Origin: Candidatus Omnitrophota bacterium
GTDB lineage: Bacteria; Omnitrophota; Gorgyraeia; Gygaellales; Profunditerraquicolaceae
Direction of reading: 5' to 3'
Length of the DNA stretch: 64,000 nt
Assembly (NCBI GenBank): GCA_023227985.1
Contig: JALOCB010000003.1
Location: forward strand, 5,260-69,259
Part shown: positions 1 through 62,564 of the stretch, piece after piece
Layout of the letters: the number at the start of each line of letters is the position of its first letter
Position numbering within the stretch: the first letter of the stretch is position 1
The notes under the pieces: generated by a model
What the model was told of the DNA's origin: nothing
The model's input: the letters and a program-made list of their open reading frames with translations, nothing else
Database searches by the model: none
Program-made: the position numbers and the translations under genes

Positions 1-579
1 AGAATGATCCAGCGTCTGGCTATTAATAATGGTACTGCCCACGGCAATAACTATGACGCTGACGGTAAACTTATTGAAACACAGATGAATTTGAAGATGA
101 CCGCGGCGATCGCCGAAGTTATTAAGGCGTATGGTATACAGATAGTCCAGCACGGCGTGACCGGAACGCCTATTAAAAATCTCCAGGCATTGCGTAATGT
201 CGGGATCAGGGCCGCTCATGTCGGGACCAATTGGCAGAATATTATTTGGGAAACTTTAGTTGCCCAGGCGCAGGCGGGTAATTCGACCGCTAAGTCCATA
301 GTAAACCGGATGATCGATGCGACTATCGCTAAGACTGCGGACGTGGAGAAGAAGTATAAAGTATCCGGCCGAAGCGCAGAAGCCAAGGATAGCGTTTATG
401 TCCCGGGAAAAGACAAGAACCTGGACAAGCTGATCGGTAAAGAATTAAAGATGGTATTAGGTGTTTTCAACGACGAGTTGGTTGCTCTTCCTGATGACTT
501 GATTGCCAAGATTGATGAGGCCACCGAAAAATCCGCTACCGAGCATATGCTGGGTTTCGGTTCTGACGGAACAGCCCAG
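1..579 (+). other. Domain: class II FBA, C-terminal two-thirds (N-terminal part lies upstream of the window)
   Basis: LAINNGTAHG and IVQHGVTG match the two His-containing metal-ligand strands. GFGSDGTA matches the conserved FGSxGKA C-terminus of class II aldolases. Confidence 0.75.
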
Positions 580-3500
580 ATGGTAAAGGATGATTATGCG
601 GTTCAGGGGTTGGTTTATCCTGAAGATTTCTCCTCGATCAAAGGATTATATGCCTTTAAGGCGCTCGAAGGAACGGATAAGACGATTATGTGTTGTAATA
701 TACGTTCGCCTCTAAGCATTAGGGGTATTATGCGCGCGGCCCAAAAAACAGGCAGCGTGGTTATTTTTCAGCAGGCAATGAGCGAATTCGATTATACCTG
801 GAAAGGCGGCTATGCCCCGGAGAATGCGGCTAAGCTTGCCCGTAATATCAAAGAAGCTGCAAAAAAAGAAAATTTCCACGATTTCATGATTAAGGGCGAT
901 CATCTTACGGTTAAAGTTGATGATGCTTTCTTGAAGGATAAGGCGGCGCAGGATGCTGTTGCTGTGGTATTTGAGAAAATATTGGATGAACAGGATGTTT
1001 CCAAGCGGGAAGCATTGTTCAACGCTGCATCCAAAGACGAAGTTCTTTTAGCCAATGCCGGCGTAGCTAAAGCAATGAAAGCGGTAAATAAGGCTATGAC
1101 CTTGATCAAAGAAGAAGTTGCTTCGGATTTCACTGTTTTTGCTTTAGACGCGTCATTTATGCCTACCAGGCTTAATGTCCTGGTCAGCGCTTACCTGGCG
1201 GGGTTTATTCCCCAGGATGCAGGTTTGGAAGCTGAAGTTGGCGAGATTGGCGGAAAAGAAAATTCCACGGTTGCCGACGCGTTGGAATTCATTACCGGTA
1301 TCAGGTTCAAGGAAGAGGTTGTGGTCAGCCAGGGAGTGAAATATTCTCAGCTGGTCGGTCCGAGAAGGATCGGTGTTCTTACCGGCGGCGGACCTGCTTC
1401 CGGGCATAACGCGGTGATCGCGGCAATGGTCCGCGAAGCGGAGCAGCGGGGGATCGAGATCGTGGCTATCCCTGAAGGTTGGGCTGGTTTGACCAAGGAT
1501 GAAGTAGCCGCGCAAGCCAAGGTTATAACTATTAAAGATGTGGAAAAGTGGGGGAAGAAAGGCGGCACAATGCTGGGGACCAGCCGCACCAATCCGTATA
1601 AGAAAGAAGGGGACGCCCAGAAGGTTTGGGATAATATCCAGAAGTTAAAGCTTGACGGTCTGGTAACTCTCGGCGGTGATGATACCAACGGGGTTACTTC
1701 CAAACTGCAAAAAGAACATCCGGATTACTTATTCATTGGTCTGCCTAAGACCATGGATAATGATATAGCGCTTCCGGAGAGTGACGCGCAGACCTATGGT
1801 TTTGACAGCTTTACCGTCAAGGCCTCTGAATCGTTCGAGGCTGGAAAGATTGACGCGCAATCTACCCATAGGATACTGATCGCTGAAGTTTTTGGAAGGG
1901 CGGCCGGATTCGTTTCTGCGCGTATCGGGGCCAATATAGGGGCTACCCGCACACTGATCCCTGAAGAATTGGTTGATCTTTCAAAGTTAGTCGAGGATCT
2001 GCGCAGCTATTATAAGAATAATAAATACGGGGTTGTTGTGGTTGCCGAAGGGGCAAGCGTCAATGTTGATGGTTTCAAACTGGATGAAAACGGGGAATTG
2101 ACAGTTGTTAAGCCCGAAGACCCGGATGTAAAATTGTTGCTGGCCGCATTTAAGAGCGATCCTATGGCCAAAGCGGCTTTTATCAAGTCTATGAAAGCCG
2201 AGATGGATGATTTTGGCCACAAAAAACTGGAGAATGTCGGTCTTATTGTCGCAGCTGTGGTAAAAACCGCGTTAAAGGCGGATAAGATCGATATTAGCTT
2301 CGCCGGTAAAGCGGATTATCTTTTTCGCTCCGCCGATGTTTCCAAATTGGACGCTGAAATGACCACTATGCTGGGGAAGGCCGCTGTGGAGAAGATCGCG
2401 GATATCCAGAATGATCAGTTGCTTTACGCTTACAAGGGGCAGATTAAATCCATACCGTTTGCCCGGGAATTAGGCGGAAGGGTCCTGGATTACAAAGGCG
2501 CCCATAAAGATGAATATATGTTGGCCAACCTGGCGCTTATTGATGAAAAAACTGAAATAACGCTTTCGGATGCATCGGTTAATGAGGACTTGTTCCAGGC
2601 AGCGGTTAGAAACTTAAAAGGACTTAACCCGGGCGAATTAATGACTCTGAGTTTTTCGGAGATGAAGGTTTTGTTATGGAAGCTTAATAGCCTTGATCAA
2701 GAAACCGGGGACAATCAGGAAGTAGTTCAGTCTGTCAGAAGGATTCTGCATAGGATAGACGACAGGCAGATAGAACAGGTCAAGAAATTTGCCAATATCG
2801 GCGTGTTTGCCCGAGAAAATACTGCGTATAACCTGGAATCAGTGCTTAAGGATGACAATATCCTGGTTATCGCGGCTAACGCGCTTATTTTTCGCGCCGG
2901 AGCCTTTGCCGAATTCTATCATAATTGGGAGCCGGGAGTTAACCTCGCGGCGATCAAGTCTATGAAAGGCGGCAAAGAAGCTACTGCCGAGGAATTTGTC
3001 CGGCAGAACAGCCGTTATAACGGACCTTTTAGCCCGTATCAGTTAAAAGGTTTGCGCGTGCTTAAGGATGAACGCCGGGTGATTGATGGTGTCGCTGTTA
3101 ATTTCATTTTCGTGCCCGCGGATAAGAATATCGGAAGGCCGGATATCAAGATACCATATTTCGGCCCGGAAACAACTAACCAGCAGGTGCTTGATACTAT
3201 GAAGGCCTTAGGTTTAGAGTTGGATGTCATGGCCTATTACGGCCCGACCAGCGAAACGGTTCAGCCCAGGATATTCAAGGAGTTCATTGAGGCTGGATTG
3301 CCTGTTGTAGCAGCTTCTCCGGTCAACACCGACGCTGTAAAAAATATGCTCAAAGCTAAGTTTCAGCAGGAAGGTGTTGCGGATGATATGCTGGATGAAG
3401 CGGTGAGTAAGGCTTTTAAGGAAGGTTTGTATTCCGCTACCCGTAAAGAAATCGGCGCGGATGTCAAGATCGTGGATACTTTAAGCTGCACTTCCAATGC

Positions 3501-4767
3501 CATGATTTCGGTTATTAAAGCAATGTGGGATAAGTTCGGTATCGATCATGGTACCGGCCTGACTATTCATTCCCAGACTGATTCCAATGAGACTTTCCCG
3601 ATGAAAAGCGGCAGGGCCAGGGATCCCCTGGATATCGCCCGCGGCGATTCCATCCGTGACAACATAATCCCTGCTTCAACCGGCGCAAAAAAGAACCTCT
3701 TTAAGATGATCCCGGAATTAAAAGGCAGGTTCGAGATCACCGCTGTTCGCACCGGTACTGTTTCGGCTTCGACCTGGGAGATGACCATGGACCTTAAGAC
3801 TGAAGTGACCAGGGATGATGTCCTTGCGGCTTTAAAGGATTTCGCCCTGAATAAGACCGACGGGGTGGTGAAATTTCACGAAGGAGACCCGGACAGGAAT
3901 CCCGGGCCTCTGGACGCCAACGCCGTGGTCGGCTGGAATAATGTTTCTATTATCGACAGTTTATTGATCAATGTTCTGGATAATAAGAAAACAGTGACTA
4001 TTAAAGGTTTGTATGATAACCAATCAGCGGCGCCGAATCAAATGGTTTCTAAATGGTCGCCGTGGATGGTTGACGGTTTAAGGCTGCGCCAGATAGTCGG
4101 CGAAAAGAACAGCAAAAAGCTGAACAAAGCCGAAGCTGTAGCGTATGCCAAACTCAACGCCGGTTATGCCGGCCTGCTTAAAGCCGTAAGCGCGGTAAAA
4201 ACCAGCGGAGCTCTGGTGGTCAGCGCTGACGTGGTCTTAAAGAACGCCGGGACGCTTTCATCGCTCAAAGCCTTGAAAGAATCAGGCGCTCTTATTGAGA
4301 TCATTGTCCAGGCGAACAACAAGGCTGTCGCTGATAAAATGGTATCAATGGGCGTTGAACAATTCGCGAGCATTCAGTTCAAGCAGGTTAACGCGATAGT
4401 AGAAGAGTTGAATACCAAAGGTATAACTGATGAAAGAATAGTAGTGCTTAAGACCAAAGCTGAATCGAAAGAAGAAGTCAAGAATACCGTCAAGGTGGTC
4501 AATGTCGGCGAAGCTAAAGTCGCCGAATCTTCTGTTAATGCCATGTCGATAGCAGTGGCAAAGGCAGTAACCACCGTGTTGCAGGATAATACGGAGGTTG
4601 TTGATCAATATCAGCAGATGGCGAAGAATTACGCCGAAGCTAACGACGTCGAGCTAAGCAAACTGGAAGATCTGACCAGCCAGATCTCGGATATGCCGCT
4701 GGTTAAGGTGAGCGAAGAAGTGGTCAAGGCTCAGGTTACTTACGAAGAAACTGTAAACAAGATCTAA
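1..4767 (+). CDS. Giant glycolytic fusion protein 1 (5' partial, frame open to window edge): class II fructose-bisphosphate aldolase + truncated aldolase-like copy + PPi-type 6-phosphofructokinase + GAPDH-like + shared C-terminal module
   Basis: Uninterrupted frame from nt 1 to TAA at 4765-4767. Motifs: LAINNGTAHG, IVQHGVTG, GFGSDGTA (FBA II); GVLTGGGPASGHN, LGGDDTNG, PKTMDNDI (PFK-A family); SCTSNAM, IIPASTGAKK (GAPDH). Confidence 0.85.
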   Translation, partial: RMIQRLAINNGTAHGNNYDADGKLIETQMNLKMTAAIAEVIKAYGIQIVQHGVTGTPIKNLQALRNVGIRAAHVGTNWQNIIWETLVAQAQAGNSTAKSIVNRMIDATIAKTADVEKKYKVSGRSAEAKDSVYVPGKDKNLDKLIGKELKMVLGVFNDELVALPDDLIAKIDEATEKSATEHMLGFGSDGTAQMVKDDYAVQGLVYPEDFSSIKGLYAFKALEGTDKTIMCCNIRSPLSIRGIMRAAQKTGSVVIFQQAMSEFDYTWKGGYAPENAAKLARNIKEAAKKENFHDFMIKGDHLTVKVDDAFLKDKAAQDAVAVVFEKILDEQDVSKREALFNAASKDEVLLANAGVAKAMKAVNKAMTLIKEEVASDFTVFALDASFMPTRLNVLVSAYLAGFIPQDAGLEAEVGEIGGKENSTVADALEFITGIRFKEEVVVSQGVKYSQLVGPRRIGVLTGGGPASGHNAVIAAMVREAEQRGIEIVAIPEGWAGLTKDEVAAQAKVITIKDVEKWGKKGGTMLGTSRTNPYKKEGDAQKVWDNIQKLKLDGLVTLGGDDTNGVTSKLQKEHPDYLFIGLPKTMDNDIALPESDAQTYGFDSFTVKASESFEAGKIDAQSTHRILIAEVFGRAAGFVSARIGANIGATRTLIPEELVDLSKLVEDLRSYYKNNKYGVVVVAEGASVNVDGFKLDENGELTVVKPEDPDVKLLLAAFKSDPMAKAAFIKSMKAEMDDFGHKKLENVGLIVAAVVKTALKADKIDISFAGKADYLFRSADVSKLDAEMTTMLGKAAVEKIADIQNDQLLYAYKGQIKSIPFARELGGRVLDYKGAHKDEYMLANLALIDEKTEITLSDASVNEDLFQAAVRNLKGLNPGELMTLSFSEMKVLLWKLNSLDQETGDNQEVVQSVRRILHRIDDRQIEQVKKFANIGVFARENTAYNLESVLKDDNILVIAANALIFRAGAFAEFYHNWEPGVNLAAIKSMKGGKEATAEEFVRQNSRYNGPFSPYQLKGLRVLKDERRVIDGVAVNFIFVPADKNIGRPDIKIPYFGPETTNQQVLDTMKALGLELDVMAYYGPTSETVQPRIFKEFIEAGLPVVAASPVNTDAVKNMLKAKFQQEGVADDMLDEAVSKAFKEGLYSATRKEIGADVKIVDTLSCTSNAMISVIKAMWDKFGIDHGTGLTIHSQTDSNETFPMKSGRARDPLDIARGDSIRDNIIPASTGAKKNLFKMIPELKGRFEITAVRTGTVSASTWEMTMDLKTEVTRDDVLAALKDFALNKTDGVVKFHEGDPDRNPGPLDANAVVGWNNVSIIDSLLINVLDNKKTVTIKGLYDNQSAAPNQMVSKWSPWMVDGLRLRQIVGEKNSKKLNKAEAVAYAKLNAGYAGLLKAVSAVKTSGALVVSADVVLKNAGTLSSLKALKESGALIEIIVQANNKAVADKMVSMGVEQFASIQFKQVNAIVEELNTKGITDERIVVLKTKAESKEEVKNTVKVVNVGEAKVAESSVNAMSIAVAKAVTTVLQDNTEVVDQYQQMAKNYAEANDVELSKLEDLTSQISDMPLVKVSEEVVKAQVTYEETVNKI
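586..1308 (+). other. Domain: second class II aldolase-like segment, truncated after the EAEVGEIGG strand
   Basis: IMCCNIRSPLSIRGIMRAAQKTGSVVIFQQ, IKGDHL, FALDASFMP and LEAEVGEIGGKE follow the order of FBA II strands 1-6. The GTxHG and HGxSG strands are absent before the PFK domain starts. Confidence 0.55.
1357..2493 (+). other. Domain: 6-phosphofructokinase, PPi-dependent type
   Basis: RIGVLTGGGPASGHN, GGDDT (nt 1672-1686; Asp where ATP-PFKs have Gly), PKTMDNDI, VVVAEGA, DDFGHKKL. Confidence 0.8.
2851..4083 (+). other. Domain: glyceraldehyde-3-phosphate dehydrogenase-like
   Basis: Catalytic-Cys motif SCTSNAM (Cys codon 3487-3489), LTIHSQTD, NIIPASTGAKK, PELKGRFEITAVRTGTVSAS. The N-terminal dinucleotide loop is degenerate (ILVIAANALIFRAG instead of INGFGRIGR). 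Confidence 0.7.
4156..4764 (+). other. Shared C-terminal module, copy 1 (alpha/beta-looking part plus conserved helical tail)
   Basis: Aligns over about 200 aa with the C-terminus of ORF 4926..12698. 25 of the last 34 residues are identical, and a 20-nt stretch ctgaccagccagatctcgga is identical at 4672-4691 and 12603-12622. Confidence 0.8.
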
Positions 4768-4773
4768 CATTCT

Positions 4774-4828
4774 CAAGACCCGGTCTTGCATCCCAATGAG
4801 TCCTAATGGGTTGCAAGACCGGGTCTTG
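4774..4828 (+). repeat. Intercistronic inverted repeat / RNA hairpin: perfect 17-bp arms, 21-nt loop
   Basis: CAAGACCCGGTCTTGCA (4774-4790) is the exact reverse complement of TGCAAGACCGGGTCTTG (4812-4828). Each 15-nt core is itself palindromic. Confidence 0.8.
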
Positions 4829-4925
4829 AACATGTCTTTATATGAATAAGATAAATCCGTTTCAATTTAAAAACCGCAACAGGCAGAAGTTGTAATTTAA
4901 TTCAAATCATCAACCGGAGGGAAAA

Positions 4926-5156
4926 ATGTTCGTAAGGTTATCCCAAAACAACCTGTTCAGGAAGATCGTCGGCATTCTTATTCTTTTACAATTTTCAGCC
5001 GGTTTTGCCGTGATTAGGGGTTATGCTGCTCCCGGAAATTTGCGGCCTGCCGCCGTCAAACAGGATGGTTCCCGGTCCGGGACTATCCAGAATTCGCTTG
5101 ACGCGGCCAGCCTGGATAAGGTTATAAAAACCCCGGTCATTCATAAGGACGGCGGT
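4926..5156 (+). other. Shared N-terminal leader, copy 1 (basic N-terminus, hydrophobic stretch, RGYAAPGNLRPAAVK, then KDGG)
   Basis: Position-by-position alignment with the N-terminus of ORF 12779..17302. Confidence 0.75.
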
Positions 5157-8100
5157 ATAACCGGCCAGGATGTTTTTAAGAATATCCTTGGCGAATACCG
5201 TGTTTCCTCCACGATAAACAATCTCGCTTTCGGGACGTTCGTCCAGGGGCAGATCGACCTTAGTTCGGTTCAGAACCGGGAAGCGCTGGTCAATAATTTC
5301 GGGGAGATTAAGAGCAAAGATCGTTTTTTTACCCTTGAATACGCGGGAATTCCGCTTGCCCTGGTCAAGAAGGCCGAAACCGGAGAAATTACCGTCAAGA
5401 AAGTAGTCGAAGACATTGCTTCGATCCCGCTCAACATCCTTTCCGACAATGCCGAAAAGCTCAAAACCGAAGGTGTTACTTCCTCGGATATCCTGGTCCG
5501 CGATTTTCTTATCCTTGAAAAAAGGTCGCGTATCGACATCACTCAGTGCATGACCGTAGAGTTTGGCGAGCTGCGCGACTACGTATACAATCTGGCTAAA
5601 AATGTCGGCCAGGAAAAGGCACTGGAGATGGCATCGGCGTTTGCGGGTAAGGCTACCGTTGACGAGGCTATGGCGGAAGTCGGCGAGAAAGCTAAGCAGT
5701 TAGGCCGCGACCAAGCGAAGGACACAGGTCTGGCGCTGGCCGGCGGTAAGGGTTTGAGCCTTTCGGTCATGAGCCGCGTGGTTGACGTGCCGCCTGGTTT
5801 GAACGTTACTACTACCGCGTATTTTAAGTTCGTCAAAGATAATAAACAGGTCTGGGAGAAGATCTTTAATGAGCTGCAGACCTTGGATACTATGGATGAC
5901 CAGAAGCGCGACGTTGTCACTTCGGAGATCCGCGATGTCATTAAAAGCGCGCCGATACCCGAAGACATCAAGGCTGAGGTAACAGCAATGTACCACCAGC
6001 TAAGCGTTATCCGTTTTCTTGCCGGTAAACCTTCGCCCGCTCCGGTGGCTGTCCGCTCTTCCGGCACCAAAGAGGATATTCACGTTAAAACCTGGCTGCC
6101 GGTTTCCACCGGTTCCCAGGCCGGCCAGTCGGATACATTCCTTAATGTTAAGGGCGAACGGGATGTCCTGGATAAATTACGCGCCGATTGGGCGTCTTTA
6201 TTTACCGATCGCGCGGTCAGCTACCGTGATGACGCCACCTTCTTGCAGTTCTCTGGAGCCATCGATTTTAACGGTAAGACTTCTCAGGATGTCTATTGGG
6301 GGATCGTGGCGAAGCTTCGGGAATACTCCAAGAAACTGGATAAGCCTGAATATAACGTGTACGCTGACTTAATGAGTAAAGTCACCAGCCCTAACCCTGG
6401 GTCGGTGAGCCTGATGAACGCCATGGAGGAGATCCTGAGACAGGAATCGAATCCGGAGATGTCCAATGCCCTTGCCGTTCTGAAGAAGAAAGCAGAGGAG
6501 GTTGTGCATCCCGAACAGATCGGTATCGACGTTGTGATCATGCAGATGGCTAAGAGTTATCTTGCCGGCGTGCTTTTTACCGTCAATCCGGCGACCAAGA
6601 TGGCCGGTGTGGCCCAGTCGTTATACAAGTCATGGTATATGGGTGATGATTCGCTCGTGTACCGCGACGCGAAGACCGATATTATCCAGGGAACCAGGCC
6701 CATAGTGGTGAGCTTTGATGTGGCCTTCGGCTACGGCGAGAACGTAGTCGGCGGCAAGGTAAACCCGGACAAGTTCATTATGGGCACCTACGACGGCGAG
6801 AGCTGGTTTGTTATCGAGAAAAGCAAAGGCAATAAACTTATTCAGATGAAGGACGTGGAAGAAGTCATCGATCTCCTCAAAGACAAGATATCGGAAAAGG
6901 GCCAGCGGCAGCTCGCTATGACCGTGAAAGACGCGATCGCGTATGATGAGGTCGGCAAGCGGATCAACGGCATTATGGCGACCAAACTCTACGGTATCAA
7001 GTATCTTAAGGCGCTTGAGGGTAAAGAGGAAAGCGATAAAGACAAGAAGGCCCGCGTACAGGCTATCGCCAATGAGATTGCCGACATGGTCAAGAATAAG
7101 GTTTCCGAGGATGAAGTTGTCGCGTTCATCAAGGGTAACTTTGAGGTCGTTAACCGGAAGGGCTATAAAGGCATTCAGGAAATGGCGCTTTCGGGAGTGG
7201 TCAGGGAAGTGTTTGAGAAAGTCCAACAGGCCCAGGCTGAGACCGACCGGGGTATGTTTAAACTCTCAAAGCAGCTCGGCGATATGGGAAAGGCCGATAC
7301 GCTTATCCATATGATCAAGGAGGTTTGGGAGAATAAGGAATTTACTCTTTCCGACCGCCAGGCGATTCTTGACAAACTGAACCTTACCAACCAGGAATTG
7401 CGTAATATGAGTTACCTTATCCGCGCGCTGGTGGATAATAGCTTTACTTCAAATTATGAGACTACTTTAACCCACCAGGATACCTTTACTATGACCGATG
7501 ATCAGGCCCAGTATGTGGCGCGTATGGGTTGGGCGATCACCGAATATTATAAGGATGCCCGAGATATAGAGTATGCCATCGAGATAGATAAAACCGCTTC
7601 TTCCGACAAAGCGGTGAGGCTTTACGTTGTGGACGACCTGGGCAATGTCCAGGGAATGGACAATAATGGCAACCTGGTAACGGTGAAGTCCGAAAAGGAT
7701 AAAGCGCGTATAAAAGAAGCGAAGCTGCGCCTGTATAACGTGCAGGCCCGTCCGTATACCGCGGAATACTTGAAGGTGGATGTAATGCGCGCCCGGACCG
7801 AAGCGGATGAAAAGTGGCTTGAGGAGAATTCTCCTAAAGCGATTGCCAGCGGGACTAAGGGAGAGAACGCGACGCAGGGTTATGTGCTGGTGTTCGATCC
7901 TAACAAAGACGTTGCCTGGCACGCGGACCAGATCCGTCGTTTGAAAGCCGGAGATTTTACTGCGGAGGAAAAAGCCCAGATCATGGCTATGGGGTTTAAT
8001 CCCGAAGAGTATGGTTCAGGCAAAGAAAAGCAATTGTCGGTTATTCTTTATCTGCTTGAAGCTGACCCGAATCATGATCCGATCATGCGCCTGGTTGATT

Positions 8101-11100
8101 CGGTTGTTACTATCCGCGGCGGCGATACCTGCCACGCGGCTATCTTTTGCCGTGAACAAGGGATCCCTGCGGTCACCGGCGCGGGCAAGGTTATACTCAA
8201 CGGCCAATTGCTTAAGACCGGTGACGCGGTTACCGTTGATGCTAATAACGGGAATATTTACGAAATGCCCGCTGATGCCGGAGCGCGCATTCCGATCAAC
8301 TACGTGAAATTCAAGATTAAACCGTATGGCATCCCCGGCGACGACGACAATATGCCGTATCCGGGCATCGGCCAGATCATCGCCGCGGCAAGTGCCGCTC
8401 AGCAGAACTCGCCTATTATGCTTGCGGTTGACGCGGTCGGTAACTCGCTGACCCGCGCCGAGTTCAAAGGCGAAGAGATCGGTATCAACGTTTACGCCGG
8501 CTATGGCCATTATCTTTTACAGCAGATCAAGGCCGGAAAAATAAAGGAGCCAGTGAGGGTGCGTGTCCAGGAATTGATCCAGGGCAAGGTTCCCGGCGCA
8601 AAGAGGTTCGTGGACAATATTGAAAATGTTATGGCAGGCGCTTTTGCCAAGGATCCCGCCGCGCGTTCGGCATATCGCGACATTATGGGTAAGGATTTCA
8701 ATAAGGCGGATAGCCTGCAATTGCTGGAGTTTTTCGATTTGAAGAGCGACATTGAGCTGTATGGATTGGATGCGCTTAAACTGGTAAAACAGCAGGTTGA
8801 TATTCTTGATCTCGTTCCCCGGCTTCCGGAGAATATGTATCAGACGCTTGAATATCTTTATGGCGCCACTCAGCGCAGGCTCAACTATGATTATAATATT
8901 ATCGCCGATCTTCAGAACCATCCGTGGATACTGAAAGAAGTCGATTCTAAACTCGCGGAAAAGGGTTACGCGACGTTCAAGGAATACATCACTAACGAAT
9001 TCCTGTATTTTTACAATTTGATGGGTTTTACCATTGCGCCCGATCAGACCGCCAAGAACAGGGCTTACGATTTCGCCCAGGATAAGATCCGCGGCATGCC
9101 CGGTTCCGAGGTTTTTTCCTGGCCCGGAGTCAATCCGTTGGTCGGTTTGCGCGGTACGTCGTTGGAGATCGAGGCCTTTGACGAAGATTTCGGCGGCAAT
9201 CAGCTGGTATTGGATTTTCTTTTTGATTCCGTGATCCAGGCGCACCAGAATACCGGTAACCAAGCCTGGTTTTATGTGTTTGTCCGTTCTTCCCGGGAGT
9301 TAGAGACCCTGGATAAGATCATTGAGCACAAGGCTAAGCAGACCGGGAAGCTTCCGAAAGAGATCGGGATCATGATCGAAGTTCCCAGTGCCGCTTTGGT
9401 GGCTGATGAGCTTGCTGTTAAGATGTCCGAGATGGAGAAAAAATATAAGAAGTATGGCGTTGAGCATACTTTCTTTTCCTTCGGCACTAACGACTATTCG
9501 CATCTTGCTGGTATGGGTGACCGTGAAGACCCGCGAATGAAACTCAAGATTATGGATCCCGCAGCGATCGAAGCGATCGGCGAGATGAAAGCAGCGGGGT
9601 ATTATTATGATGATGCTGCTAAAGTGCTTCCGTTGATTGATGAAGGCGCTGATGTTATGCAGCAGCTTATGGAAACAGTGGTTGCTGCGGCTAATGGTTC
9701 AAGCGTGGCTACCTCGCTTTGCGGCGAGGCGATCACCGCCCTGGTTAACCGCGGGGATTATGAGACCGCAGGCAAGATAATGGCGCTTCTGGATTCTTTC
9801 GGCGTGAGCATGATGAAAGTCCGCCTCGCAGCTTCAATGACGCGCGTGGACACCATGGCGGCTACCAAAGGGATCACCATTCCGGAAGCCGGACGTTCGA
9901 TCCTGTTCGATTTGTCTGCCGGCGAGGTGAAACAGAAAAAGGGCGTCATCAAGGGCGAGATAATATTCGTTGATAATGCCGATGATCTCGTCCCGAACGT
10001 CCTTAAAGGCCTTCAGGGTCCGGAGCTGACGAAAAAGAAAGAGATGTTCAAGCTCCAGAGCCTGGAAAACGCCCGTTCGACTATGCGTACCTTCAATAAG
10101 ATCGTAATTATCACTAAAAACCTCGTTGCTCAGCAGGAGCCTGAGTTGGTCGCGGAGATGGGCAAAGCCGCATTCAGCAAGTTTGTCAATGACGGCCTGC
10201 TTAAAGATATCGGTAATGGGCAGTATGTCTGGACGAATCTGGGTGTAAAGACGGAGAAGTTCAACCAGGAATTGACAATTCAAGGTTTCTCTGAAAAAGA
10301 ACGTAAAGCTATTGAAGGTTTGTGGCAGAAGGCCTGGGATAACAGCATTGAAGGGCTTGAGCGCCGCGGAATTGATTGGGATGATCTACAATATGCCAAG
10401 GCTATAATCGTTGATGCGGACGTTAACCTTGATGGCTGGGATGTGTTCCGCAAGGACAAGAGTATTATTCCGACCCGTATCAAGGCTACGGTCAAAGGTA
10501 TAAGCTCCCGCCGTGCGGAGTTAGAAGGGCAATTGGCAACTATAGATTACGCCGCTAAGAAGGTCTACAAGGATTTTCTCAGCGTGGAAAAGATCGCTGC
10601 CGTCCTGCGCAGTCTTCCTATCCCAGCGGAAAAGCCTATGATAACTACGCAATCGGCTGTCGCGGAGAACGCCAACAGTGTATACCAGAAGATCGGGTAT
10701 CATCCTAAGCTCCTTCTTGCCTATGAGCGGAATGCTGTGAATGAACTTGGAAAGATATTCGAGGAATATGTAGGCAAGCTGGTTGAAGAAGTTGAAAAAG
10801 TTACTCAGGAGACCGACGTTCAGAAACGCGTATGGCTTTTACAGAAACTGCAGAATAAAGTTGGCGGGCTTGCGGAACCGATGATCAAATCGTTTATGAG
10901 CGATGTGCTTTCCGAGGCCATGCGCACAGGTGCGGTAACGCTGCCGGATAACTGGAACAAGAAGCTTTGGGAGGCCTATCGCAGCGACCTGGAAAGCGAG
11001 ATCAGTAAGATCCTTAACGGAAAGACGGTTGAGCAGTATTTTATCGCGCAGTTCAGCGAACAGATGAAGGAAGTGCTCTCCGCCAACAAAGGGGCATTGG

Positions 11101-12698
11101 TTGTCCATCTTTTGGGAAGCCTCAACTGTGTTGATTTCTTTAATATGAAAGGCGGTTTCCTGGTTGAACAGGTCAATCCCAACCCTGATTACGGCATTCT
11201 TGGAGCGGCGCGCGCAATAGGGGATATGTGGGAGATAAACCGCATGGAATTGTCCGCTTTTAAGGCGGTATGGGATAATCTGCCGGTTGACCAGCGCGGT
11301 AATTTTGGCCTGCAGATCACCAATCTCAAAGGCACCCAGTCCGGCGCGGTGGTGATCGGCTGGCGTAATATTCTGAAACAAACCGGTATTATCCCGGGGC
11401 AAGACGGTTTGCAGGTTGGCGTCAATATCGTCACTCCGGCGGATAGCATCGCTGCGGATAAGTATTTTGAGTACTTTAATACGCTCGGAAGCGGGTTAAG
11501 TTTTATCTCATATGATGCGTTGAAGCTTGGCGCTGCCTGGGCCGGCGTGGATATTTTTTGGAAGGAATGGAGGAGGCTGGCTAAGGAAGATGAGTTGTTG
11601 AGGTTCGGCGTCATGACCGGCTGGATGGCGGAAGCCAAGGCTCTGAGGTTCGGCGGCAAAGTCCTTTCCTTTGATATTTCTGACGAAGCCAAACAGACTG
11701 ACGGCGGCGCTGAGGTTGTGCCTTACCGGGTAGTGGTGGAGAATCTCTTCCGGGGGATCATTAAGAAATATGATGCTTTGGATAACGGCCAAGCTCTTTC
11801 TCTCGAAAAAGAAGAGTTGGAGGCAATACTCTGGATCTTGAATTCTTCTCCTTTTGAGAATATGTCAAGCCCGTTTGCCGCGATCAAGAGTATGAAGAAT
11901 ATCAGGAATGTGATCGAAAGGCTCAGCGATGACCAAAAGAAGGCCCTAAGTGTACTTTCACAGGGCTTGGTTTTTGTCAATCACGGGCTGGATAAAAAGG
12001 TGGCGGCATTGCTCGTAGACAAGAAGTTGCTCGACACCGCATATGAATCCGACACGGCGGTATATAAAGGGTTGAACAGCGGTTTTGACAGCTTCGCCAA
12101 TGCCTTGAAAGAGGTTAAGAATGCCGAGGGCGCTTTAGTGGTTAGCGCAAATGCTGTGTTGAATAACGCCGGAACGCTGAGAGTCCTGAGAGAAATAAAA
12201 GAAACCGGGCTGACCTTGGAAATAATCGTCCGGGCTGATACGGAAGATCAGGTGAATAAGCTGATTGCCCTTCGGGCAGACGAAGTCGCGACTATCCAGG
12301 CCAAGCGGCTGTCAGTTGTGCTCAGCGGCTTGAAGAACGCGGGTATAACCGATGGCAAGATAGTGGTGATTAAAGGCAAAGAAGAAGTAAAAGACGCGGT
12401 AGAAGCCGGCGTAAAGGTCGTAGAGATCTCCATGCCTAAAACAGAGGAGTCCAGTATCAACTCCATGGCCTTAGTTGCGGCAAAAGCGGTAATCATAGTG
12501 TTAAATGGTGAAGAAACGGTTGCCGCGCAATACCGGGAAATGGCGGTAAAATACGCCGCAGATAACAGCGTAACCTCTGAAGAATTGGATGATCTGCAGG
12601 ACCTGACCAGCCAGATCTCGGAGATACCCATGGCCAAGGTCAGCGAAGAAGTCGCTAAGGCGCAGGCCACTTATGAGGAGACTATAAGCAAGATATAA
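4926..12698 (+). CDS. Giant fusion protein 2: leader + PEP-utilising dikinase (PPDK/PpsA family) with large insertions + degenerate duplicate of its His and TIM-barrel domains + shared C-terminal module
   Basis: 2590-codon ORF with GGAGGG 4 nt upstream of the ATG. Motifs: LAGGKGLSLSVM, VAVRSSGTKEDI, GSQAGQSDTFLNV, IRGGDTCHAAIFCREQGIPAVTG (His codon 8133-8135), FFSFGTNDYSHL, SLCGEA. Confidence 0.85.
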   Translation: MFVRLSQNNLFRKIVGILILLQFSAGFAVIRGYAAPGNLRPAAVKQDGSRSGTIQNSLDAASLDKVIKTPVIHKDGGITGQDVFKNILGEYRVSSTINNLAFGTFVQGQIDLSSVQNREALVNNFGEIKSKDRFFTLEYAGIPLALVKKAETGEITVKKVVEDIASIPLNILSDNAEKLKTEGVTSSDILVRDFLILEKRSRIDITQCMTVEFGELRDYVYNLAKNVGQEKALEMASAFAGKATVDEAMAEVGEKAKQLGRDQAKDTGLALAGGKGLSLSVMSRVVDVPPGLNVTTTAYFKFVKDNKQVWEKIFNELQTLDTMDDQKRDVVTSEIRDVIKSAPIPEDIKAEVTAMYHQLSVIRFLAGKPSPAPVAVRSSGTKEDIHVKTWLPVSTGSQAGQSDTFLNVKGERDVLDKLRADWASLFTDRAVSYRDDATFLQFSGAIDFNGKTSQDVYWGIVAKLREYSKKLDKPEYNVYADLMSKVTSPNPGSVSLMNAMEEILRQESNPEMSNALAVLKKKAEEVVHPEQIGIDVVIMQMAKSYLAGVLFTVNPATKMAGVAQSLYKSWYMGDDSLVYRDAKTDIIQGTRPIVVSFDVAFGYGENVVGGKVNPDKFIMGTYDGESWFVIEKSKGNKLIQMKDVEEVIDLLKDKISEKGQRQLAMTVKDAIAYDEVGKRINGIMATKLYGIKYLKALEGKEESDKDKKARVQAIANEIADMVKNKVSEDEVVAFIKGNFEVVNRKGYKGIQEMALSGVVREVFEKVQQAQAETDRGMFKLSKQLGDMGKADTLIHMIKEVWENKEFTLSDRQAILDKLNLTNQELRNMSYLIRALVDNSFTSNYETTLTHQDTFTMTDDQAQYVARMGWAITEYYKDARDIEYAIEIDKTASSDKAVRLYVVDDLGNVQGMDNNGNLVTVKSEKDKARIKEAKLRLYNVQARPYTAEYLKVDVMRARTEADEKWLEENSPKAIASGTKGENATQGYVLVFDPNKDVAWHADQIRRLKAGDFTAEEKAQIMAMGFNPEEYGSGKEKQLSVILYLLEADPNHDPIMRLVDSVVTIRGGDTCHAAIFCREQGIPAVTGAGKVILNGQLLKTGDAVTVDANNGNIYEMPADAGARIPINYVKFKIKPYGIPGDDDNMPYPGIGQIIAAASAAQQNSPIMLAVDAVGNSLTRAEFKGEEIGINVYAGYGHYLLQQIKAGKIKEPVRVRVQELIQGKVPGAKRFVDNIENVMAGAFAKDPAARSAYRDIMGKDFNKADSLQLLEFFDLKSDIELYGLDALKLVKQQVDILDLVPRLPENMYQTLEYLYGATQRRLNYDYNIIADLQNHPWILKEVDSKLAEKGYATFKEYITNEFLYFYNLMGFTIAPDQTAKNRAYDFAQDKIRGMPGSEVFSWPGVNPLVGLRGTSLEIEAFDEDFGGNQLVLDFLFDSVIQAHQNTGNQAWFYVFVRSSRELETLDKIIEHKAKQTGKLPKEIGIMIEVPSAALVADELAVKMSEMEKKYKKYGVEHTFFSFGTNDYSHLAGMGDREDPRMKLKIMDPAAIEAIGEMKAAGYYYDDAAKVLPLIDEGADVMQQLMETVVAAANGSSVATSLCGEAITALVNRGDYETAGKIMALLDSFGVSMMKVRLAASMTRVDTMAATKGITIPEAGRSILFDLSAGEVKQKKGVIKGEIIFVDNADDLVPNVLKGLQGPELTKKKEMFKLQSLENARSTMRTFNKIVIITKNLVAQQEPELVAEMGKAAFSKFVNDGLLKDIGNGQYVWTNLGVKTEKFNQELTIQGFSEKERKAIEGLWQKAWDNSIEGLERRGIDWDDLQYAKAIIVDADVNLDGWDVFRKDKSIIPTRIKATVKGISSRRAELEGQLATIDYAAKKVYKDFLSVEKIAAVLRSLPIPAEKPMITTQSAVAENANSVYQKIGYHPKLLLAYERNAVNELGKIFEEYVGKLVEEVEKVTQETDVQKRVWLLQKLQNKVGGLAEPMIKSFMSDVLSEAMRTGAVTLPDNWNKKLWEAYRSDLESEISKILNGKTVEQYFIAQFSEQMKEVLSANKGALVVHLLGSLNCVDFFNMKGGFLVEQVNPNPDYGILGAARAIGDMWEINRMELSAFKAVWDNLPVDQRGNFGLQITNLKGTQSGAVVIGWRNILKQTGIIPGQDGLQVGVNIVTPADSIAADKYFEYFNTLGSGLSFISYDALKLGAAWAGVDIFWKEWRRLAKEDELLRFGVMTGWMAEAKALRFGGKVLSFDISDEAKQTDGGAEVVPYRVVVENLFRGIIKKYDALDNGQALSLEKEELEAILWILNSSPFENMSSPFAAIKSMKNIRNVIERLSDDQKKALSVLSQGLVFVNHGLDKKVAALLVDKKLLDTAYESDTAVYKGLNSGFDSFANALKEVKNAEGALVVSANAVLNNAGTLRVLREIKETGLTLEIIVRADTEDQVNKLIALRADEVATIQAKRLSVVLSGLKNAGITDGKIVVIKGKEEVKDAVEAGVKVVEISMPKTEESSINSMALVAAKAVIIVLNGEETVAAQYREMAVKYAADNSVTSEELDDLQDLTSQISEIPMAKVSEEVAKAQATYEETISKI
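5688..6845 (+). other. Domain: dikinase N-terminal ATP-grasp (nucleotide-binding) region
   Basis: GGKGLSLS..VPPGLNVTT, VRSSGTKED, QAGQSDTFLNVKG, DRAVSYR, IDVVIMQM..AGVLFTVNP. Confidence 0.75.
7833..8270 (+). other. Domain: phosphohistidine swivel domain
   Basis: GTKGENATQGYVLVF ... ILYLLEADPNHDPIM ... TIRGGDTCHAAIFCREQGIPAVTGAG ... GDAVTVDANNGNIY. Confidence 0.8.
8343..9845 (+). other. Domain: PEP/pyruvate-binding TIM barrel
   Basis: NPLVGLRGTS, GIMIEVPSAAL, FFSFGTNDYSHL, SLCGEA. Confidence 0.75.
9918..11675 (+). other. Degenerate duplicate of the swivel and TIM-barrel domains; catalytic His and GTND motif lost
   Basis: GVIKGEIIFVDNADDL ... AKAIIVDADVNLDGWDVF ... GQLATIDYAAKKVY mirrors the swivel-domain layout without the His. 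EQVNPNPDYGILGAARAI, LQVGVNIVTPADSIAAD and LSFISYDALKLG mirror NPxLGxRG, MIEVPSAAL and FSxGTNDL. Confidence 0.5.
12078..12695 (+). other. Shared C-terminal module, copy 2
   Basis: EGALVVSANAVLNNAGTL..LEIIVRAD..ATIQ..GITDGKIVVIKGK...DLTSQISEIPMAKVSEEVAKAQATYEETISKI aligns with copy 1. Confidence 0.8.
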
Positions 12699-12703
12699 TA
12701 TAT

Positions 12704-12758
12704 TGAGGCCGGGTCTTGTAACCGATTCAAACGCAAGGGAATACAAGACCGGGTCTTG
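12704..12758 (+). repeat. Intercistronic hairpin, second copy: 17-nt arms, 21-nt loop, same core sequence
   Basis: TGAGGCCGGGTCTTGTA (12704-12720) pairs with TACAAGACCGGGTCTTG (12742-12758). As RNA, 16 of 17 positions pair: three DNA mismatches become G-U wobbles and one G-G mismatch remains. The loop length is identical to the 4774..4828 element. Confidence 0.7.
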
Positions 12759-12778
12759 ATAATTAGAGGAGGGAAAAG

Positions 12779-12961
12779 ATGTCCAGGCCGTCTAAAAACA
12801 ATAGTATCTCTAAAATAATTTCCGGCGTTGTGATCGCGCAATTTATCATGAGCAGTATAGCCCTGCGCGGTTATGCCGGCACAGACAATTTAAGGCCGGC
12901 TCCGGTCAAAGATTCCGACCGGATAAGCGTTCTGGCCGATGAATTGCAGAAAGACGGCGGC
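12779..12961 (+). other. Shared N-terminal leader, copy 2 (RGYAGTDNLRPAPVK ... KDGG)
   Basis: Aligns with 4926..5156. Confidence 0.75.
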
Positions 12962-15900
12962 AAACTGGCTGAATGGATCCATATCTTAGCGGAAAATACA
13001 ATTGTGGGCGATGCCGCTAAAGGTTCGAACGTCGGCATGGTCATACGGCTGGGAAAGCTTGTTGAAGAGAATATATCCGGGTCCATATTAGGGCATTCGG
13101 CAAACCGGAAGGCGTATATAAAGGAAGTGGGCGCTCAAATCGCTGAAGGGCTGCGTTTGACCGGAATGGAAGAAAAGGCGATCGCGGCTGCCAGCCGCAA
13201 GATAGCTTTTTCCAGATACGATAACATCATGAATCACCGGATCCAGGCGATGTTTCAAGCAGGGATCAGGGAGATCTGCCTTTGCGTAGGCAGTGATAAG
13301 GATAAGCTCACCGTTGAGGAAGAGATATCGGATGTGCTTGCGCAGTTGCAGGTGTCTTTTGCCGATGTCTCTTTGGAACAAATAAAAAAGATAATTTTCC
13401 ACGTGGCTTGGGAGCCTGCGGCGAATATCGGCACCGGTACTGCTGTCGGTCCGGAAAAGATCAAGCTGGTCCATCAGGCTATCTATGAATTCTTTGCCGA
13501 GAAGTATAATACACCCTCCGGGTATATCGGCGATGTTTGGGGGAAGTCATTGAAAATACTTTACGGCGCAAGCGTTGACGGAAAGAACGTCGACGGCATA
13601 ATGGCGGTGAAAGAGGATAAAGGCATGGCTTTGGTGCACGGCGTGTTATTCGCTTCTTCGGGTAAAAAGGCCGATGGCTTCCTGGCTGTGGCCGAGGGGG
13701 TTAGCCGCGCCGCGGAAAGGGATAACGCCCAGTATGTCTGTTTTGTCAACCTTAAGGAATTCGCCAGGGCTGAGAAAGATGAGGCTTTGACTTTTGTCGT
13801 CGAGATCGTCCGGGCCATTGCTTTAGGACGGATCGATCCCCGGCATACCATTCTGGCGATCGCTGACCAGGATGTACATCTAAAGGAGTGGCAGGACGCG
13901 ATCGTCGGCAGAAGCGTTTCGATGTCGGACGGCGGATACGCGTATGTTGAAGGAACGAACTTTAAGGACAAGAATGTGCTTTTTCGCCCGGATTATAACA
14001 CTCCGGCTTCGGTAAAGACCGATGATCAGGGTAATGTTTTGTCGATCAAAATATCCGACGCAAGCAGGATCGTTGATTCCTTCCCGGCTTTGACCAAGAT
14101 CCTGAAAGATAAGCCAAAACATGTGGTTGTCGTTGTCCATTTCGAACCTAAGGTGTTGAATCCCGCGACCGGTAAGAAAGACAAGAAAAATCTGTCTACT
14201 AAAGTCACAGCGGACAAACTTAAAGAATTGCTGCCGGCGGAATATAAAGATAAGGTAATATTCCTGGCTGATTCAGTCAATGACAATGGGATTGCCGCCG
14301 AAGCAATGCGGGCTATAGAAAGTTATACTGATTCCGAGATCATCGTATTGGAAAATATCCGTTTTGCCAAAGGCGAAAAGAAAGGTGCCCCCGAGCTTAA
14401 TGATCCTAAAGGTGTAGCTTTACGCAAACAGCTTTCAGGATTAGCGGACGAATATGTGGTGGATGCCTTGGGTAATATTCATCGCGCCCACGCATCAATG
14501 CTGCCTTTGCCCGGGGTGCATAAAGTCATGGGCAGTCTTGTGGAAAAAGAGATTAAAGTGTTCAACCGGATACTTAACCCGGCGCATCCTTATGCCGGGG
14601 TTAACGGCGGTAATAAGGTTGAAGATAAAGTGGATACCATGGATGTGTCTTTGTCGACGATGCAGGAAGGCGACGCGATCATCATCGGCGGGGCTATGGC
14701 CTACACTTTTTTAAAGGCGCAGGATCCAACATTGAAATTGGGCAAATCACTTGTTCAGGCGGATAAAGTTGATCTGGCTAAGACTATACTTGAGAAGGCC
14801 GCCCGGAAGAAGGTGCGGATAATCCTTCCAGTGGACCATCGCATCTCGGATAAACTCGCTCCCGGAGCAGCAGAATTGGTTACTGAGGGGCTGGAAGTGC
14901 CGGATGGGTACATGGCGGTAGATATCGGACCCAAGACTGAAAAAATAGTCGCCGAGGTCTTAAGTAATGCCCAGACCGCTTTTTGGAACGGCCCAATGGG
15001 CGCGTTCGAGGATGAGGCTGGTGGTTTTAATAAGGGGACTTATACGGTTGCCAGGGAACTGCAGAAAATGGGCAGGTCCGGACGCCTGGCCGGTATCGGC
15101 GGCGGGGAGACACGTATGGCAGCAATTAAGGCCGGGGTTACCGATGCTGACGGCGTGTTCATGTCCAGCGGCGGCGGTTCCACGCAGGAATATTTCGCCA
15201 AGAAAGGCAATCTCCCGGTGATCAAGAATCTGGAGAATGACGAAACCGCCCAGAAAAATCTCGTCCTCGCGGGGAAATTGGGGGTAGAACCCGCGGATCT
15301 GGCGCGTTTTGAAGCGGCAGACAGCAGTATTTATAATGCCTTGGGAGATAAACTTTTCAACGGCTATATATCTCAGGTCAGAAGGTTGCTTCCCAGGTTT
15401 TCGACAGGCCAGAAATTAAACGGCGCTCTGTCCAAAGCAGAGGTCTCTGCGGAGGTGATTAAAGATTCGCGCGGAAACAATACTGTCCGGGCAACTTTAA
15501 AGATCGGGGATATTGTTACTGTCGGCGAAGTCCCTGCAGGCGCTTCCAAAGGGGCAGCTGAGGCTTTTGCTTTTCCGCCGAAGGAAATAGATAGGGCGAT
15601 CGCCAACGTGGCGAAGATCCAGGAGATACTTAAGAACAGCGGCCTGGATATAAGCAAACACAGCGATCTGCGCAAGACGGAACAATTGATCATTGCCGCG
15701 GCCGGTGAAAACTTCGCGACACTGGGCGCGAACGCCACAGTCCCTATTTCCTGGGCCTTGTGGAGGATGGCGGCAGCGTTGAATAATATGGAACTCTGGG
15801 AATACATCCGGATCAATGAGCCGGGAGTTGTCGGTAATGATCCGGTTTATTTCTATATGAACATATATAACGGCGGGCTGCACGCTTCCGGAGGCGACGC

Positions 15901-17302: not shown

Positions 17303-17330
17303 TTACCGCAGCTGATATAAAATGTTCTTT

Positions 17331-17386
17331 TAGAGGCCTCTGGAGAATTCCTATAAAGGATTATATCAGAGGCCTCTGATCTTTTG
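17331..17386 (+). terminator. Double-palindrome element / probable operon terminator
   Basis: AGAGGCCTCT at 17332-17341 and CAGAGGCCTCTG at 17368-17379 can pair with each other. The second is followed by TCTTTTGG. Confidence 0.4.
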
Positions 17387-29303: not shown

Positions 29304-29330
29304 CCGCCTGCCACGGTAGGTAAAACAAAA

Positions 29331-29362
29331 AACCCGCTCAAAATTCCGAGCGGGTTTTTTGT
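29331..29362. terminator. Rho-independent terminator, probably bidirectional
   Basis: AACCCGCTC (29331-29339) / GAGCGGGTT (29349-29357), with an A-run upstream and TTTTTTG downstream. It sits between convergent plus-strand and minus-strand units. Confidence 0.8.
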
Positions 29363-29408
29363 TGGAAATTGCGGGGGCCAGATTTGAACTGACGGCCTTC
29401 AGGTTATG

Positions 29409-30126: not shown

Positions 30127-31688
<1,562 letters not shown>

Positions 31689-44974: not shown

Positions 44975-44990
44975 ATACAACAAGTTGTAT
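44975..44990 (+). promoter_or_regulatory. NrdR box 1
   Basis: ATACAACAAGTTGTAT, a 16-bp near-palindrome matching the NrdR-box pattern (acaC..at.t..GtgT class). Confidence 0.7.
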
Positions 44991-45005: not shown

Positions 45006-45021
45006 ATACAATATGTTGTAT
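45006..45021 (+). promoter_or_regulatory. NrdR box 2
   Basis: ATACAATATGTTGTAT, starting 31 bp after box 1, which is the usual tandem spacing. Confidence 0.7.
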
Positions 45022-47405: not shown

Positions 47406-47424
47406 ACTGATTTAACAAATACAT

Positions 47425-47468
47425 AGTCCCTTGTCCGGCTTCTGCCGGGCAAGGGACTGCTTATTTTA
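47425..47468 (+). terminator. Rho-independent terminator
   Basis: AGTCCCTTGTCCGGC / GCCGGGCAAGGGACT form a 15-bp stem (one G-U pair) with loop TTCT, followed by a T-rich tail. Confidence 0.75.
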
Positions 47469-47543
47469 TACCCTAAAAGTATTGTTCACCCGGGTATTAA
47501 TTTACGATAAACACCGGCTTTTAGGCCGGGGCGGGATAAATCT

Positions 47544-48830: not shown

Positions 48831-48902
48831 TATAATACTCGCATTATAAATCAAATAGGTATAGATGGAGTTAAAGGCACGGGGAACAGGTTCTTTATTC
48901 CT

Positions 48903-62047: not shown

Positions 62048-62060
62048 CCAAAACGGAGGG

Positions 62061-62549: not shown

Positions 62550-62564
62550 AGCGCGGGTAATCTT

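Follow-up and report, generated by a model that had tools for sequence, protein, structure and literature searches.

Two long inverted repeats lie between the giant cistrons of a glycolytic operon in a 64,000-nucleotide (nt) stretch of DNA from a Candidatus Omnitrophota bacterium (contig JALOCB010000003.1; the whole stretch is referred to here as the window), one just past the stop codon of open reading frame 1 (ORF1) and one just past that of ORF2, and the question that they raise is whether they belong to this operon or only happen to lie in it. A reading made from the sequence alone took them for intercistronic processing or stability elements that set the stoichiometry of three megaproteins, or else for operators. 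The comparisons described here point elsewhere: the two hairpins, designated copy 1 and copy 2, are likely to be members of a REPIN/REP-like, probably mobile, dispersed family of palindromic repeats of Candidatus Omnitrophota. The family appears to be undescribed, with REPIN/REP as the closest known kind; a full-text search for the motif was empty, and the Omnitrophota literature examined is silent on palindromes and hairpins.

Structure and folding of the two copies

The repeat features, which carry no strand, are as follows.

4774..4828: copy 1, two 15-nt palindromic units with a 25-nt spacer (covariance-model match 4771-4831, 66 bits, E = 2.7e-14)
4767..4835: extended inverted repeat of copy 1, with 29-nt arms at 90% complementarity
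4774..4788: unit 1a, CAAGACCCGGTCTTG, with a central C
4814..4828: unit 1b, CAAGACCGGGTCTTG, with a central G, forming with unit 1a the 'C..G' configuration
12704..12758: copy 2, with a degenerate 5' unit and a perfect 3' unit (covariance-model match 12701-12761, 54.8 bits)
12704..12718: unit 2a, TGAGGCCGGGTCTTG, with 3 mismatches to the consensus
12744..12758: unit 2b, CAAGACCGGGTCTTG

The geometry that had first drawn attention to the two sites is confirmed throughout. The arms of copy 1, CAAGACCCGGTCTTGCA (4774-4790) and TGCAAGACCGGGTCTTG (4812-4828), are exact reverse complements around a 21-nt loop; the stem is a perfect 17-18 bp with four further inner base pairs, and with mismatches the inverted repeat extends through 4767-4795 / 4807-4835, starting on the final base of the ORF1 stop codon (TAA, 4765-4767). 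Copy 2 (12704-12720 / 12742-12758) has the same geometry in degenerate form, and pairing its + strand by hand gives three G-U or U-G pairs (12704-12758, 12705-12757, and 12708-12754) and a single G-G mismatch (12711-12751). The self-palindromic 15-nt sequence CAAGACCSGGTCTTG is contained in each arm, and the distance from one unit start to the next is 40 bp in copy 1 (4774/4814) as in copy 2 (12704/12744). An alignment of the two junctions shows an identical 3' arm and a diverged loop. The 15-mer, at three or fewer mismatches, has 7 matches in the window against 1.2 expected, a number that no shuffled sequence reaches, and a covariance model of the family matches only copies 1 and 2 in the 64 kb.

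Both copies fold far better than shuffled sequences, at -44.4 kcal/mol for copy 1 (z = -8.1) and -28.5 kcal/mol for copy 2 (z = -5.6), with none of 200 shuffles folding as well in either case; the antisense strand of copy 2 folds at -18.1 kcal/mol. The statement that these are not classic terminators stands with one qualification: there is no terminator-like site at either junction (ORF1/ORF2 or ORF2/ORF3) and no U-tract directly after the stem, but the extended stem of copy 1 is followed by the weakly T-rich CTTTATAT. Promoter-like sites are absent from the first junction, and the second has one minus-strand match, no more than shuffles give. Neither copy matches an Rfam family at gathering thresholds, and in E-value mode the only matches are to eukaryotic miRNA-precursor models, all below threshold, which marks a generic hairpin.

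The paired unit recurs beside unrelated genes

A scan of one genome per species with the pattern GGTCTTG-N15-35-CAAGACCSGGTCTTG returned 17 loci, 11 of them from three Candidatus Omnitrophota metagenome-assembled genomes (MAGs). Six of these 11 are spread over five contigs of JBDRKE01, and a further locus belongs to a MAG that bears the label Planctomycetales. The remaining loci are single chance matches in mostly high-GC coding sequence of unrelated taxa (Actinomycetota, Arthrobacter, Roseicyclus, Saccharibacteria); six of the 17 loci were set aside as matches of this type. Metagenome contigs contributed 47 further loci, four of which lie at ~30, 88, 234, and 1474 kb of one 1.87-Mb contig (Ga0209340_1000001), and the paired unit is present at ~60 other loci in several Candidatus Omnitrophota genomes and metagenome contigs. 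The same scan of viral contigs gave 0 matches, so there is no sign of a phage origin.

The adjoining genes are unrelated to glycolysis or to each other, and include a CCA-adding enzyme with a BFN nuclease, an ABC ATPase, nuoD/nuoH, topA/xerC, purB/purSL (purB/purL), a Macro-NUDIX gene with UPF0047, YjeF_N with HycI, and cysS; a tblastn search with all window proteins found no homologues of ORF1-3 at the element loci. The proposed link to the megaprotein genes falls with this result, the motif being a generic dispersed repeat, the very outcome named beforehand as decisive against it. Nor is the presence of two copies in 64 kb remarkable, because the covariance model finds about five non-seed copies in 494 kb of other loci, a density of ~1 copy per 90 kb. 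That the two are 8 kb apart is mild clustering at most, and comparable local pairs are present in L010, L013, L042, and L063.

Architecture of the family

Unit spacing is exactly 40 bp in 48 of 66 unit pairs, and is 30-37 bp in genomes JBAZTA01 and JAHJJA01. The 39 unique 40-bp copies align without gaps and with conserved blocks in the spacer, giving the consensus TT-CAAGACCSGGTCTTG-yAACyyATTG-N5-CAA-N4-TTw-CAAGACCSGGTCTTG-AA. The whole element is 55-59 bp long and a near-palindrome with a 5-nt apex: a full-palindrome model pairs 80% of cells, compared with 26-48% for slid partners. The 15-mer core is invariant in contigs ranging from 35 to 53% G+C. At the centre of the units the bases form a G..C pair in 27 of the 39 copies and a C..G pair in nine, and are unpaired in three (36/39 paired); the C..G class occurs only in contigs of ~50% G+C, the window among them. 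Only this central pair covaries, and its split follows lineage. Covariation over the whole structure is 0.098 against 0.092 in shuffles, with 124 of 500 shuffles reaching the observed value, and the covariation check proposed alongside the folding check thus gives no more than its controls.

A sub-family in JBAZTA01 (L010 2642-3997 and L005 6309-6427) combines the 30-37 bp spacing with variant units TAAGACCSGGTCTTA, arranged in runs of three to four that fill three consecutive intergenic gaps around small secreted- or lipoprotein-like genes. The variant unit keeps its own palindromy and has lost the pairing between units.

Placement relative to genes

All 39 unique copies are intergenic, in loci that are 92% coding. 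Thirty of the 31 copies with both neighbours called sit between co-directional genes and none sits between divergent genes, although the co-directional preference is not significant against a background in which 90% of gene pairs are co-directional (p ~ 0.15). In 25 of the 30 co-directional cases the upstream gene has its stop codon inside the element or no more than 14 nt away, and the next start codon usually follows 11-25 nt after the element. Because spacers in these loci are very short (median 20 nt), this placement fits insertion into the only stretch that tolerates it. Orientation relative to transcription is evenly divided (12:12). Six copies (L011 627-681, L042 2764, L043 3215, L049 288, L063 5661, and L069 651) themselves provide the stop codon of the upstream ORF, which reads 16-18 nt into the element and ends at the TGA of CTTGA or the TAA of TTGTAAC; since the stop comes from the element, the insertion appears to have replaced the last few codons.

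Gain and loss at orthologous sites

Homologues of ORF3 led to the orthologous megaprotein operons; an exact look-up of the protein gave no identical record, and the orthologues were reached by a full-length ORF3 search. Copy 1 is present at the ORF1-to-ORF2 junction in L018 (99% identity) and L019/L020 (86%) and, with a short loop and one C-C mismatch, in L021 (68%). The L019 arms, CGAGATCCGGGTATTGCA and TGCAATACCCGGTCTTG, enclose a 21-nt loop and show a compensatory change from C-G to A-T; the units have lost their self-palindromy but remain mutually complementary, and the arms are less diverged than the loop. At 42% and 41% identity, L023 (2053-2157) and L072 (3790-3896) have another hairpin at this junction, GCCTGCT...AGCAGGCATACGC, homologous between the two, with an apex that differs yet pairs (CCGGTTT/AACCGG versus TAGGCC/GCCTAA). 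Every orthologous operon with DNA at the junction (L018, L019/L020, L021, L023, and L072) therefore has a stable hairpin there, which suggests that a hairpin is maintained whatever its sequence; because it is kept in all of these lineages, copy 1 may have been co-opted locally.

Copy 2, by contrast, is missing from all four of the ORF2-to-ORF3 junctions compared (L019, L021, L022, and L023), all of which have an unstructured gap of 38-46 nt. The conservation at orthologous loci to which the sequence-only reading had looked is thus seen for copy 1 and not for copy 2. Copy 1 would be old, as it is common to relatives with ORF3 proteins 86% and 68% identical, and copy 2 would be a recent gain in the lineage of the window. 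Contig L042 is syntenic with window positions 45120-51471 and 61331-63728 (58-78% amino acid identity), and where it has its first element the window holds a classical terminator hairpin instead (47417-47466), while at the second the window has an empty 13-nt gap (62047-62061). Within JBDRKE01, the copies L004 and L017 are on separate contigs and adjoin different genes, yet their spacers agree at 24 of 25 positions. The family is a dispersed, intergenic set of paired palindromes that gains and loses copies.

Probable mobility and its likely consequences

Such behaviour is what would be expected of a non-autonomous mobile element of the REP/REPIN kind. An enzyme acting in trans would copy the element, now or formerly, into the short stretch that separates a stop codon from the following ribosome-binding site; the precedent for such an enzyme is the RAYT-type tyrosine transposases. 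Once co-transcribed, it would fold in the operon mRNA as a ~20 bp hairpin just past the stop codon and, by analogy with the REPs of E. coli and Salmonella, could stand in the way of 3'-exonucleases, may be cut by a double-strand RNase, and may impede ribosomes as they terminate. Liang, Rudd, and Deutscher reportedly found in 2015 that REPs near stop codons affect translation. A co-transcribed hairpin may in this way stabilise the upstream cistron in every operon that has a copy, and any effect on the megaprotein ratio or on mRNA stability would, if the analogy holds, be a generic side effect rather than the work of a dedicated device.

Several observations weigh against a mobile REP-like element. 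In searches of low sensitivity, no RAYT or other transposase was found in the window ORFs (Pfam) and no RAYT among 20 element-flanking genes, and tblastn with E. coli RayT against ~600 kb of element loci gave nothing convincing, its one marginal match lying in a chance Saccharibacteria locus. Copy number looks low, at four to six exact copies per genome and perhaps ~20 with degenerate ones, in figures that are not whole-genome counts. The units are perfect palindromes, whereas those of REPs are imperfect, and a 15-mer that is invariant at 35-53% G+C could reflect use by the host or recognition by a conserved protein, as opposed to selfish spread. At the sites compared, neither a target-site duplication nor a clean pair of empty and filled sites was seen, and the persistence of a hairpin at the ORF1-to-ORF2 junction in all lineages, even with unrelated sequence, hints at local selection. 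The small ORFs flanked by element clusters in L005 and L010 were considered as transposases and rejected, being secreted- or lipoprotein-like.

Alternative explanations

The hairpins could instead be selected by the host for use in mRNA, as a form of operon punctuation in which the core is read by a conserved Omnitrophota protein, mobility is secondary or absent, and the hairpin holds off 3'-exonucleases, is a site of RNase III-type processing, or acts as a leaky terminator that lacks a U-tract. We regard this as unlikely. Tight placement right after the stop and ~11-25 nt before the next start would suit it, but the intergenic, co-directional placement matches the background of co-directional pairs and short spacers, and strong termination is implausible between nuoD/nuoH or purB/purL. 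The unrelated hairpins at the ORF1-to-ORF2 junction in the distant L023 and L072, and the classical terminator hairpin at the window site orthologous to an L042 element, would likewise suggest that a hairpin is wanted at such places; however, close relatives do without copy 2 and without the elements at both L042 sites. The compensatory change in the L019 arms, which diverge less than the loop, is offset by whole-structure covariation no higher than in shuffled controls and by the mismatch spectrum: among the 38 elements with known transcription direction, the units have 11 sense-strand G-U pairs and 12 A-C mismatches, and as the two are equal nothing favours the transcribed strand. The earlier argument that the G-U pairs of copy 2 show selection on RNA therefore does not generalise, a conclusion that the 12:12 orientation shares. 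The invariant core and fixed 40-bp geometry across 35-53% G+C also speak for host use, and would be accounted for by a fixed-geometry module that is read by a dedicated conserved protein and punctuates polycistronic mRNAs after their stop codons across Omnitrophota lineages. We give this module only a small chance; its reader could be a domesticated transposase, a double-strand RNase, or another hairpin binder, and it would uncouple the stability or translation of neighbouring cistrons, the glycolytic megaproteins included. The narrower idea with which the sequence-only reading began, that the hairpins are dedicated to this operon and set the stoichiometry of its three glycolytic megaproteins, is very improbable. 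Both copies do lie between giant cistrons, 5-6 nt past the stop codons, but the same element adjoins dozens of unrelated genes, and at ~1 copy per 90 kb two in one window are unsurprising. L019 and L021 retain copy 1 at the corresponding junction, but copy 2 is missing from four orthologous operons; and although all three differences in copy 2 become sense-strand G-U pairs and its sense strand folds better than its antisense strand (-28.5 versus -18.1 kcal/mol), three wobble-compatible transitions out of three have a ~1 in 8 chance and the pattern is not seen family-wide. The element is neither restricted to the orthologous operon nor marked by a structural signal on the transcribed strand, as an operon-specific cis-regulatory RNA should be. 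Of the intercistronic role first proposed, genuine hairpins inside the transcript between cistrons remain, and the dedicated function does not, as the motif occurs at ~60 unrelated loci.

The pairs could also be double-stranded DNA sites for a dimeric protein, either a regulator at its operator or a nucleoid- or chromosome-organising protein, reading two 15-bp palindromes four helical turns apart. The perfect 15-bp palindromy of each unit and the constant 40-bp spacing would suit such sites, but the units are nearly all between co-directional genes within gene runs and none is between divergent genes, and the whole 55-59 bp unit is strictly intergenic and present or absent in the manner of an insertion. 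Copy number per genome is low, and low per-genome copy number is typical of matS-, NBS-, and parS-type sites. The JBAZTA01 variant TAAGACCSGGTCTTA keeps its own palindromy at the expense of pairing between units, whereas changes in L019, L013_4031, and L042_2764 restore pairing between units and not palindromy within them, and the central bases covary between units (36/39 paired). Judged from these sequences, the pairing-restoring changes, including those at the central pair, favour a hairpin or cruciform over two independent binding sites, with the TAAGACCSGGTCTTA units making the evidence mixed; changes that restore pairing can also arise without selection, by templated correction in quasi-palindromes. 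The operator suggestion is accordingly disfavoured, by the lack of copies between divergent genes and by the L019 units, which keep mutual complementarity without palindromy, and DNA sites of either type have in our estimation hardly any chance of being the explanation. A LacI-type operator was considered and rejected.

A dispersed REPIN-like family as the explanation does away with an attractive but mistaken connection between the hairpins and the glycolytic megaprotein operon, and adds an apparently undescribed repeat family to what is known of Omnitrophota, an uncultivated phylum whose members are ultra-small and possibly predatory. The family could be used as a marker in binning, in strain typing, and in tracing its mobilising enzyme, and it offers a natural set of intercistronic hairpins for studying operon expression. 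Should its fixed geometry reflect a function in the host, the family would exemplify the co-option of a repeat element in several Omnitrophota lineages.

The megaprotein operon and other features of the window

The three giant genes are glycolytic-enzyme fusions by Pfam scan.

4..4767, + strand: ORF1, an aldolase-PFK-GAPDH fusion truncated by the window start; its stop codon is 6 nt before copy 1
4926..12698, + strand: ORF2, 2590 amino acids (aa), PPDK-like; its start is 97 nt after copy 1 and its stop (12696-12698) 5 nt before copy 2
12779..17302, + strand: ORF3, a TIM-PGK-enolase fusion; its start codon is 20 nt after copy 2, with a GGAGG ribosome-binding site between

ORF1 and ORF2 have a 217-aa C-terminal domain in common (46% identity), so their 3' ends, and possibly the downstream flanks too, are paralogous; a k-mer-seeded search of 5.8 billion proteins found no match to this domain. 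ORF2 and ORF3 start with hydrophobic N-terminal segments, and the start of ORF1 is beyond the window edge. Gene order is conserved, together with a PilZ protein, in at least eight Omnitrophota lineages (38-99% identity), with a sugar ABC transporter in nearly all of these operon lineages and a GH2-like gene in several. The window also codes for a stand-alone ordinary enolase and an iPGM (30393-31682, - strand, and 47544-48830, + strand). Membrane-anchored giant proteins with several enzymes each have been described for Omnitrophota, in general terms, in a 2026 preprint. The operon varies among relatives: in L019 (4003-9959; 86% identity) the ORF2 equivalent is in two pieces, ORFs of 1500 aa and 454 aa, the former with the same ...YEETISKI C-terminus followed by a terminator-like classical hairpin, GGTTCCCATGTGCC-ATA-GGCACATGGGAACC, with a T-rich tail, and in relative P0007 the ORF3 equivalent is fused to a glucose-6-phosphate isomerase domain.

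A third hairpin follows the ORF3 stop at 17330-17379, where (T/C)AGAGGCCTCTG occurs twice, 36 bp apart, and is followed by TCTTTTGGGG, a paired-palindrome design in a different sequence. It is conserved in L019/L020 (86%), is missing from L021, L022, L023, and 600 kb of other loci, and may be a terminator that closes the three-gene block. The paired AGAGGCCTCT palindrome after ORF3 was considered as a second dispersed family and rejected, since it is found only at this locus and in close orthologues. Two classical terminator-type hairpins are present elsewhere, one at 29324-29363 (AACAAAAAACCCGCTC / GAGCGGGTTTTTTGTT) that looks bidirectional, and one at 47417-47466, at the site of the dispersed element in L042, with a GC-rich stem followed by TTATTTT. 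A group I intron lies at 29437-29633 on the - strand (Rfam 61.6 bits against a gathering score of 50), and its flank at 29370-29436 (- strand) resembles a tRNA 3' half, with the T-loop GTTCAAATC and the end CCCCCGCA; ARAGORN finds no tRNA at 29370-29633, whether or not introns are allowed, and a search for a matching 5' acceptor strand was negative. A pair of AT-rich 16-bp palindromes, ATACAACAAGTTGTAT (44975-44990) and ATACAATATGTTGTAT (45006-45021), lies ~100 bp upstream of a ribonucleotide reductase gene (45120-47405), with 31 bp between one and the next; they look like tandem NrdR boxes, which would make them a genuine operator pair, unlike the dispersed element.

Comparison with known systems

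The element shares single features with several known systems. As with Rho-independent terminators and paired DNA uptake sequences, which can double as terminators, a G+C-containing stem-loop lies directly after a stop codon. The terminator reading was rejected for the lack of a U-tract after the stem and for the location of elements inside gene runs such as nuoD-nuoH, and the uptake-sequence reading because ~1 copy per 90 kb is far less dense than uptake sequences are. Integron attC sites are imperfect palindromes of 57-141 bp that come right after successive co-directional ORFs and have RYYYAAC / GTTRRRY core sites, which the spacer ends of the element (yAAC ... GTTr) faintly resemble; this reading too was rejected, as the element is flanked not by cassettes but by core housekeeping genes whose synteny is conserved, departs from the core-site consensus, and has no integron integrase nearby. 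Correia elements (CREE/NEMIS) of Neisseria and similar miniature inverted-repeat transposable elements are small, non-autonomous, intergenic, and co-transcribed, with inverted repeats that form long hairpins which RNase III can process. The element is likewise a small intergenic inverted repeat that folds as a long hairpin, but Correia elements measure 100-150 bp, end in inverted repeats of 26 bp, and are accompanied by a TA target duplication, whereas the element is a 55-59 bp near-complete palindrome without such a terminal repeat or duplication.

The closest resemblance is to REPINs, or REP doublets, hairpin-forming elements of Pseudomonas fluorescens and E. coli that are mobilised by RAYT transposases (Bertels & Rainey 2011, PMC3116915, PMC3337134). 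According to the parts of PMC3337134 that cite Higgins 1988 and Stern 1988, REPs affect the expression of neighbouring cistrons or mRNA stability in E. coli and Salmonella. The Omnitrophota family differs in that its units are perfect 15-nt palindromes, that it has ~5-20 copies per genome (six exact-pattern loci in JBDRKE01) rather than the hundreds of classical REP/REPIN families, and that its core is common to several Omnitrophota species, whereas REP families are usually lineage-specific; a RAYT gene is usually flanked by its repeats, and none was found here in low-sensitivity searches of the window and loci. Among the similarities, the central bases take two configurations, G..C and C..G, which parallel the TT-AA and AA-TT configurations of REPINs (PMC3337134). 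There are others: two short palindromic units are inverted around a spacer so that the whole element is a long hairpin, the copies are dispersed and strictly extragenic (39/39 intergenic), one inter-unit spacing dominates, the spacer is less conserved than the units, and there is evidence of copying in the absence of copy 2 from relatives, in the L042 sites, and in the near-identical spacers of L004 and L017.

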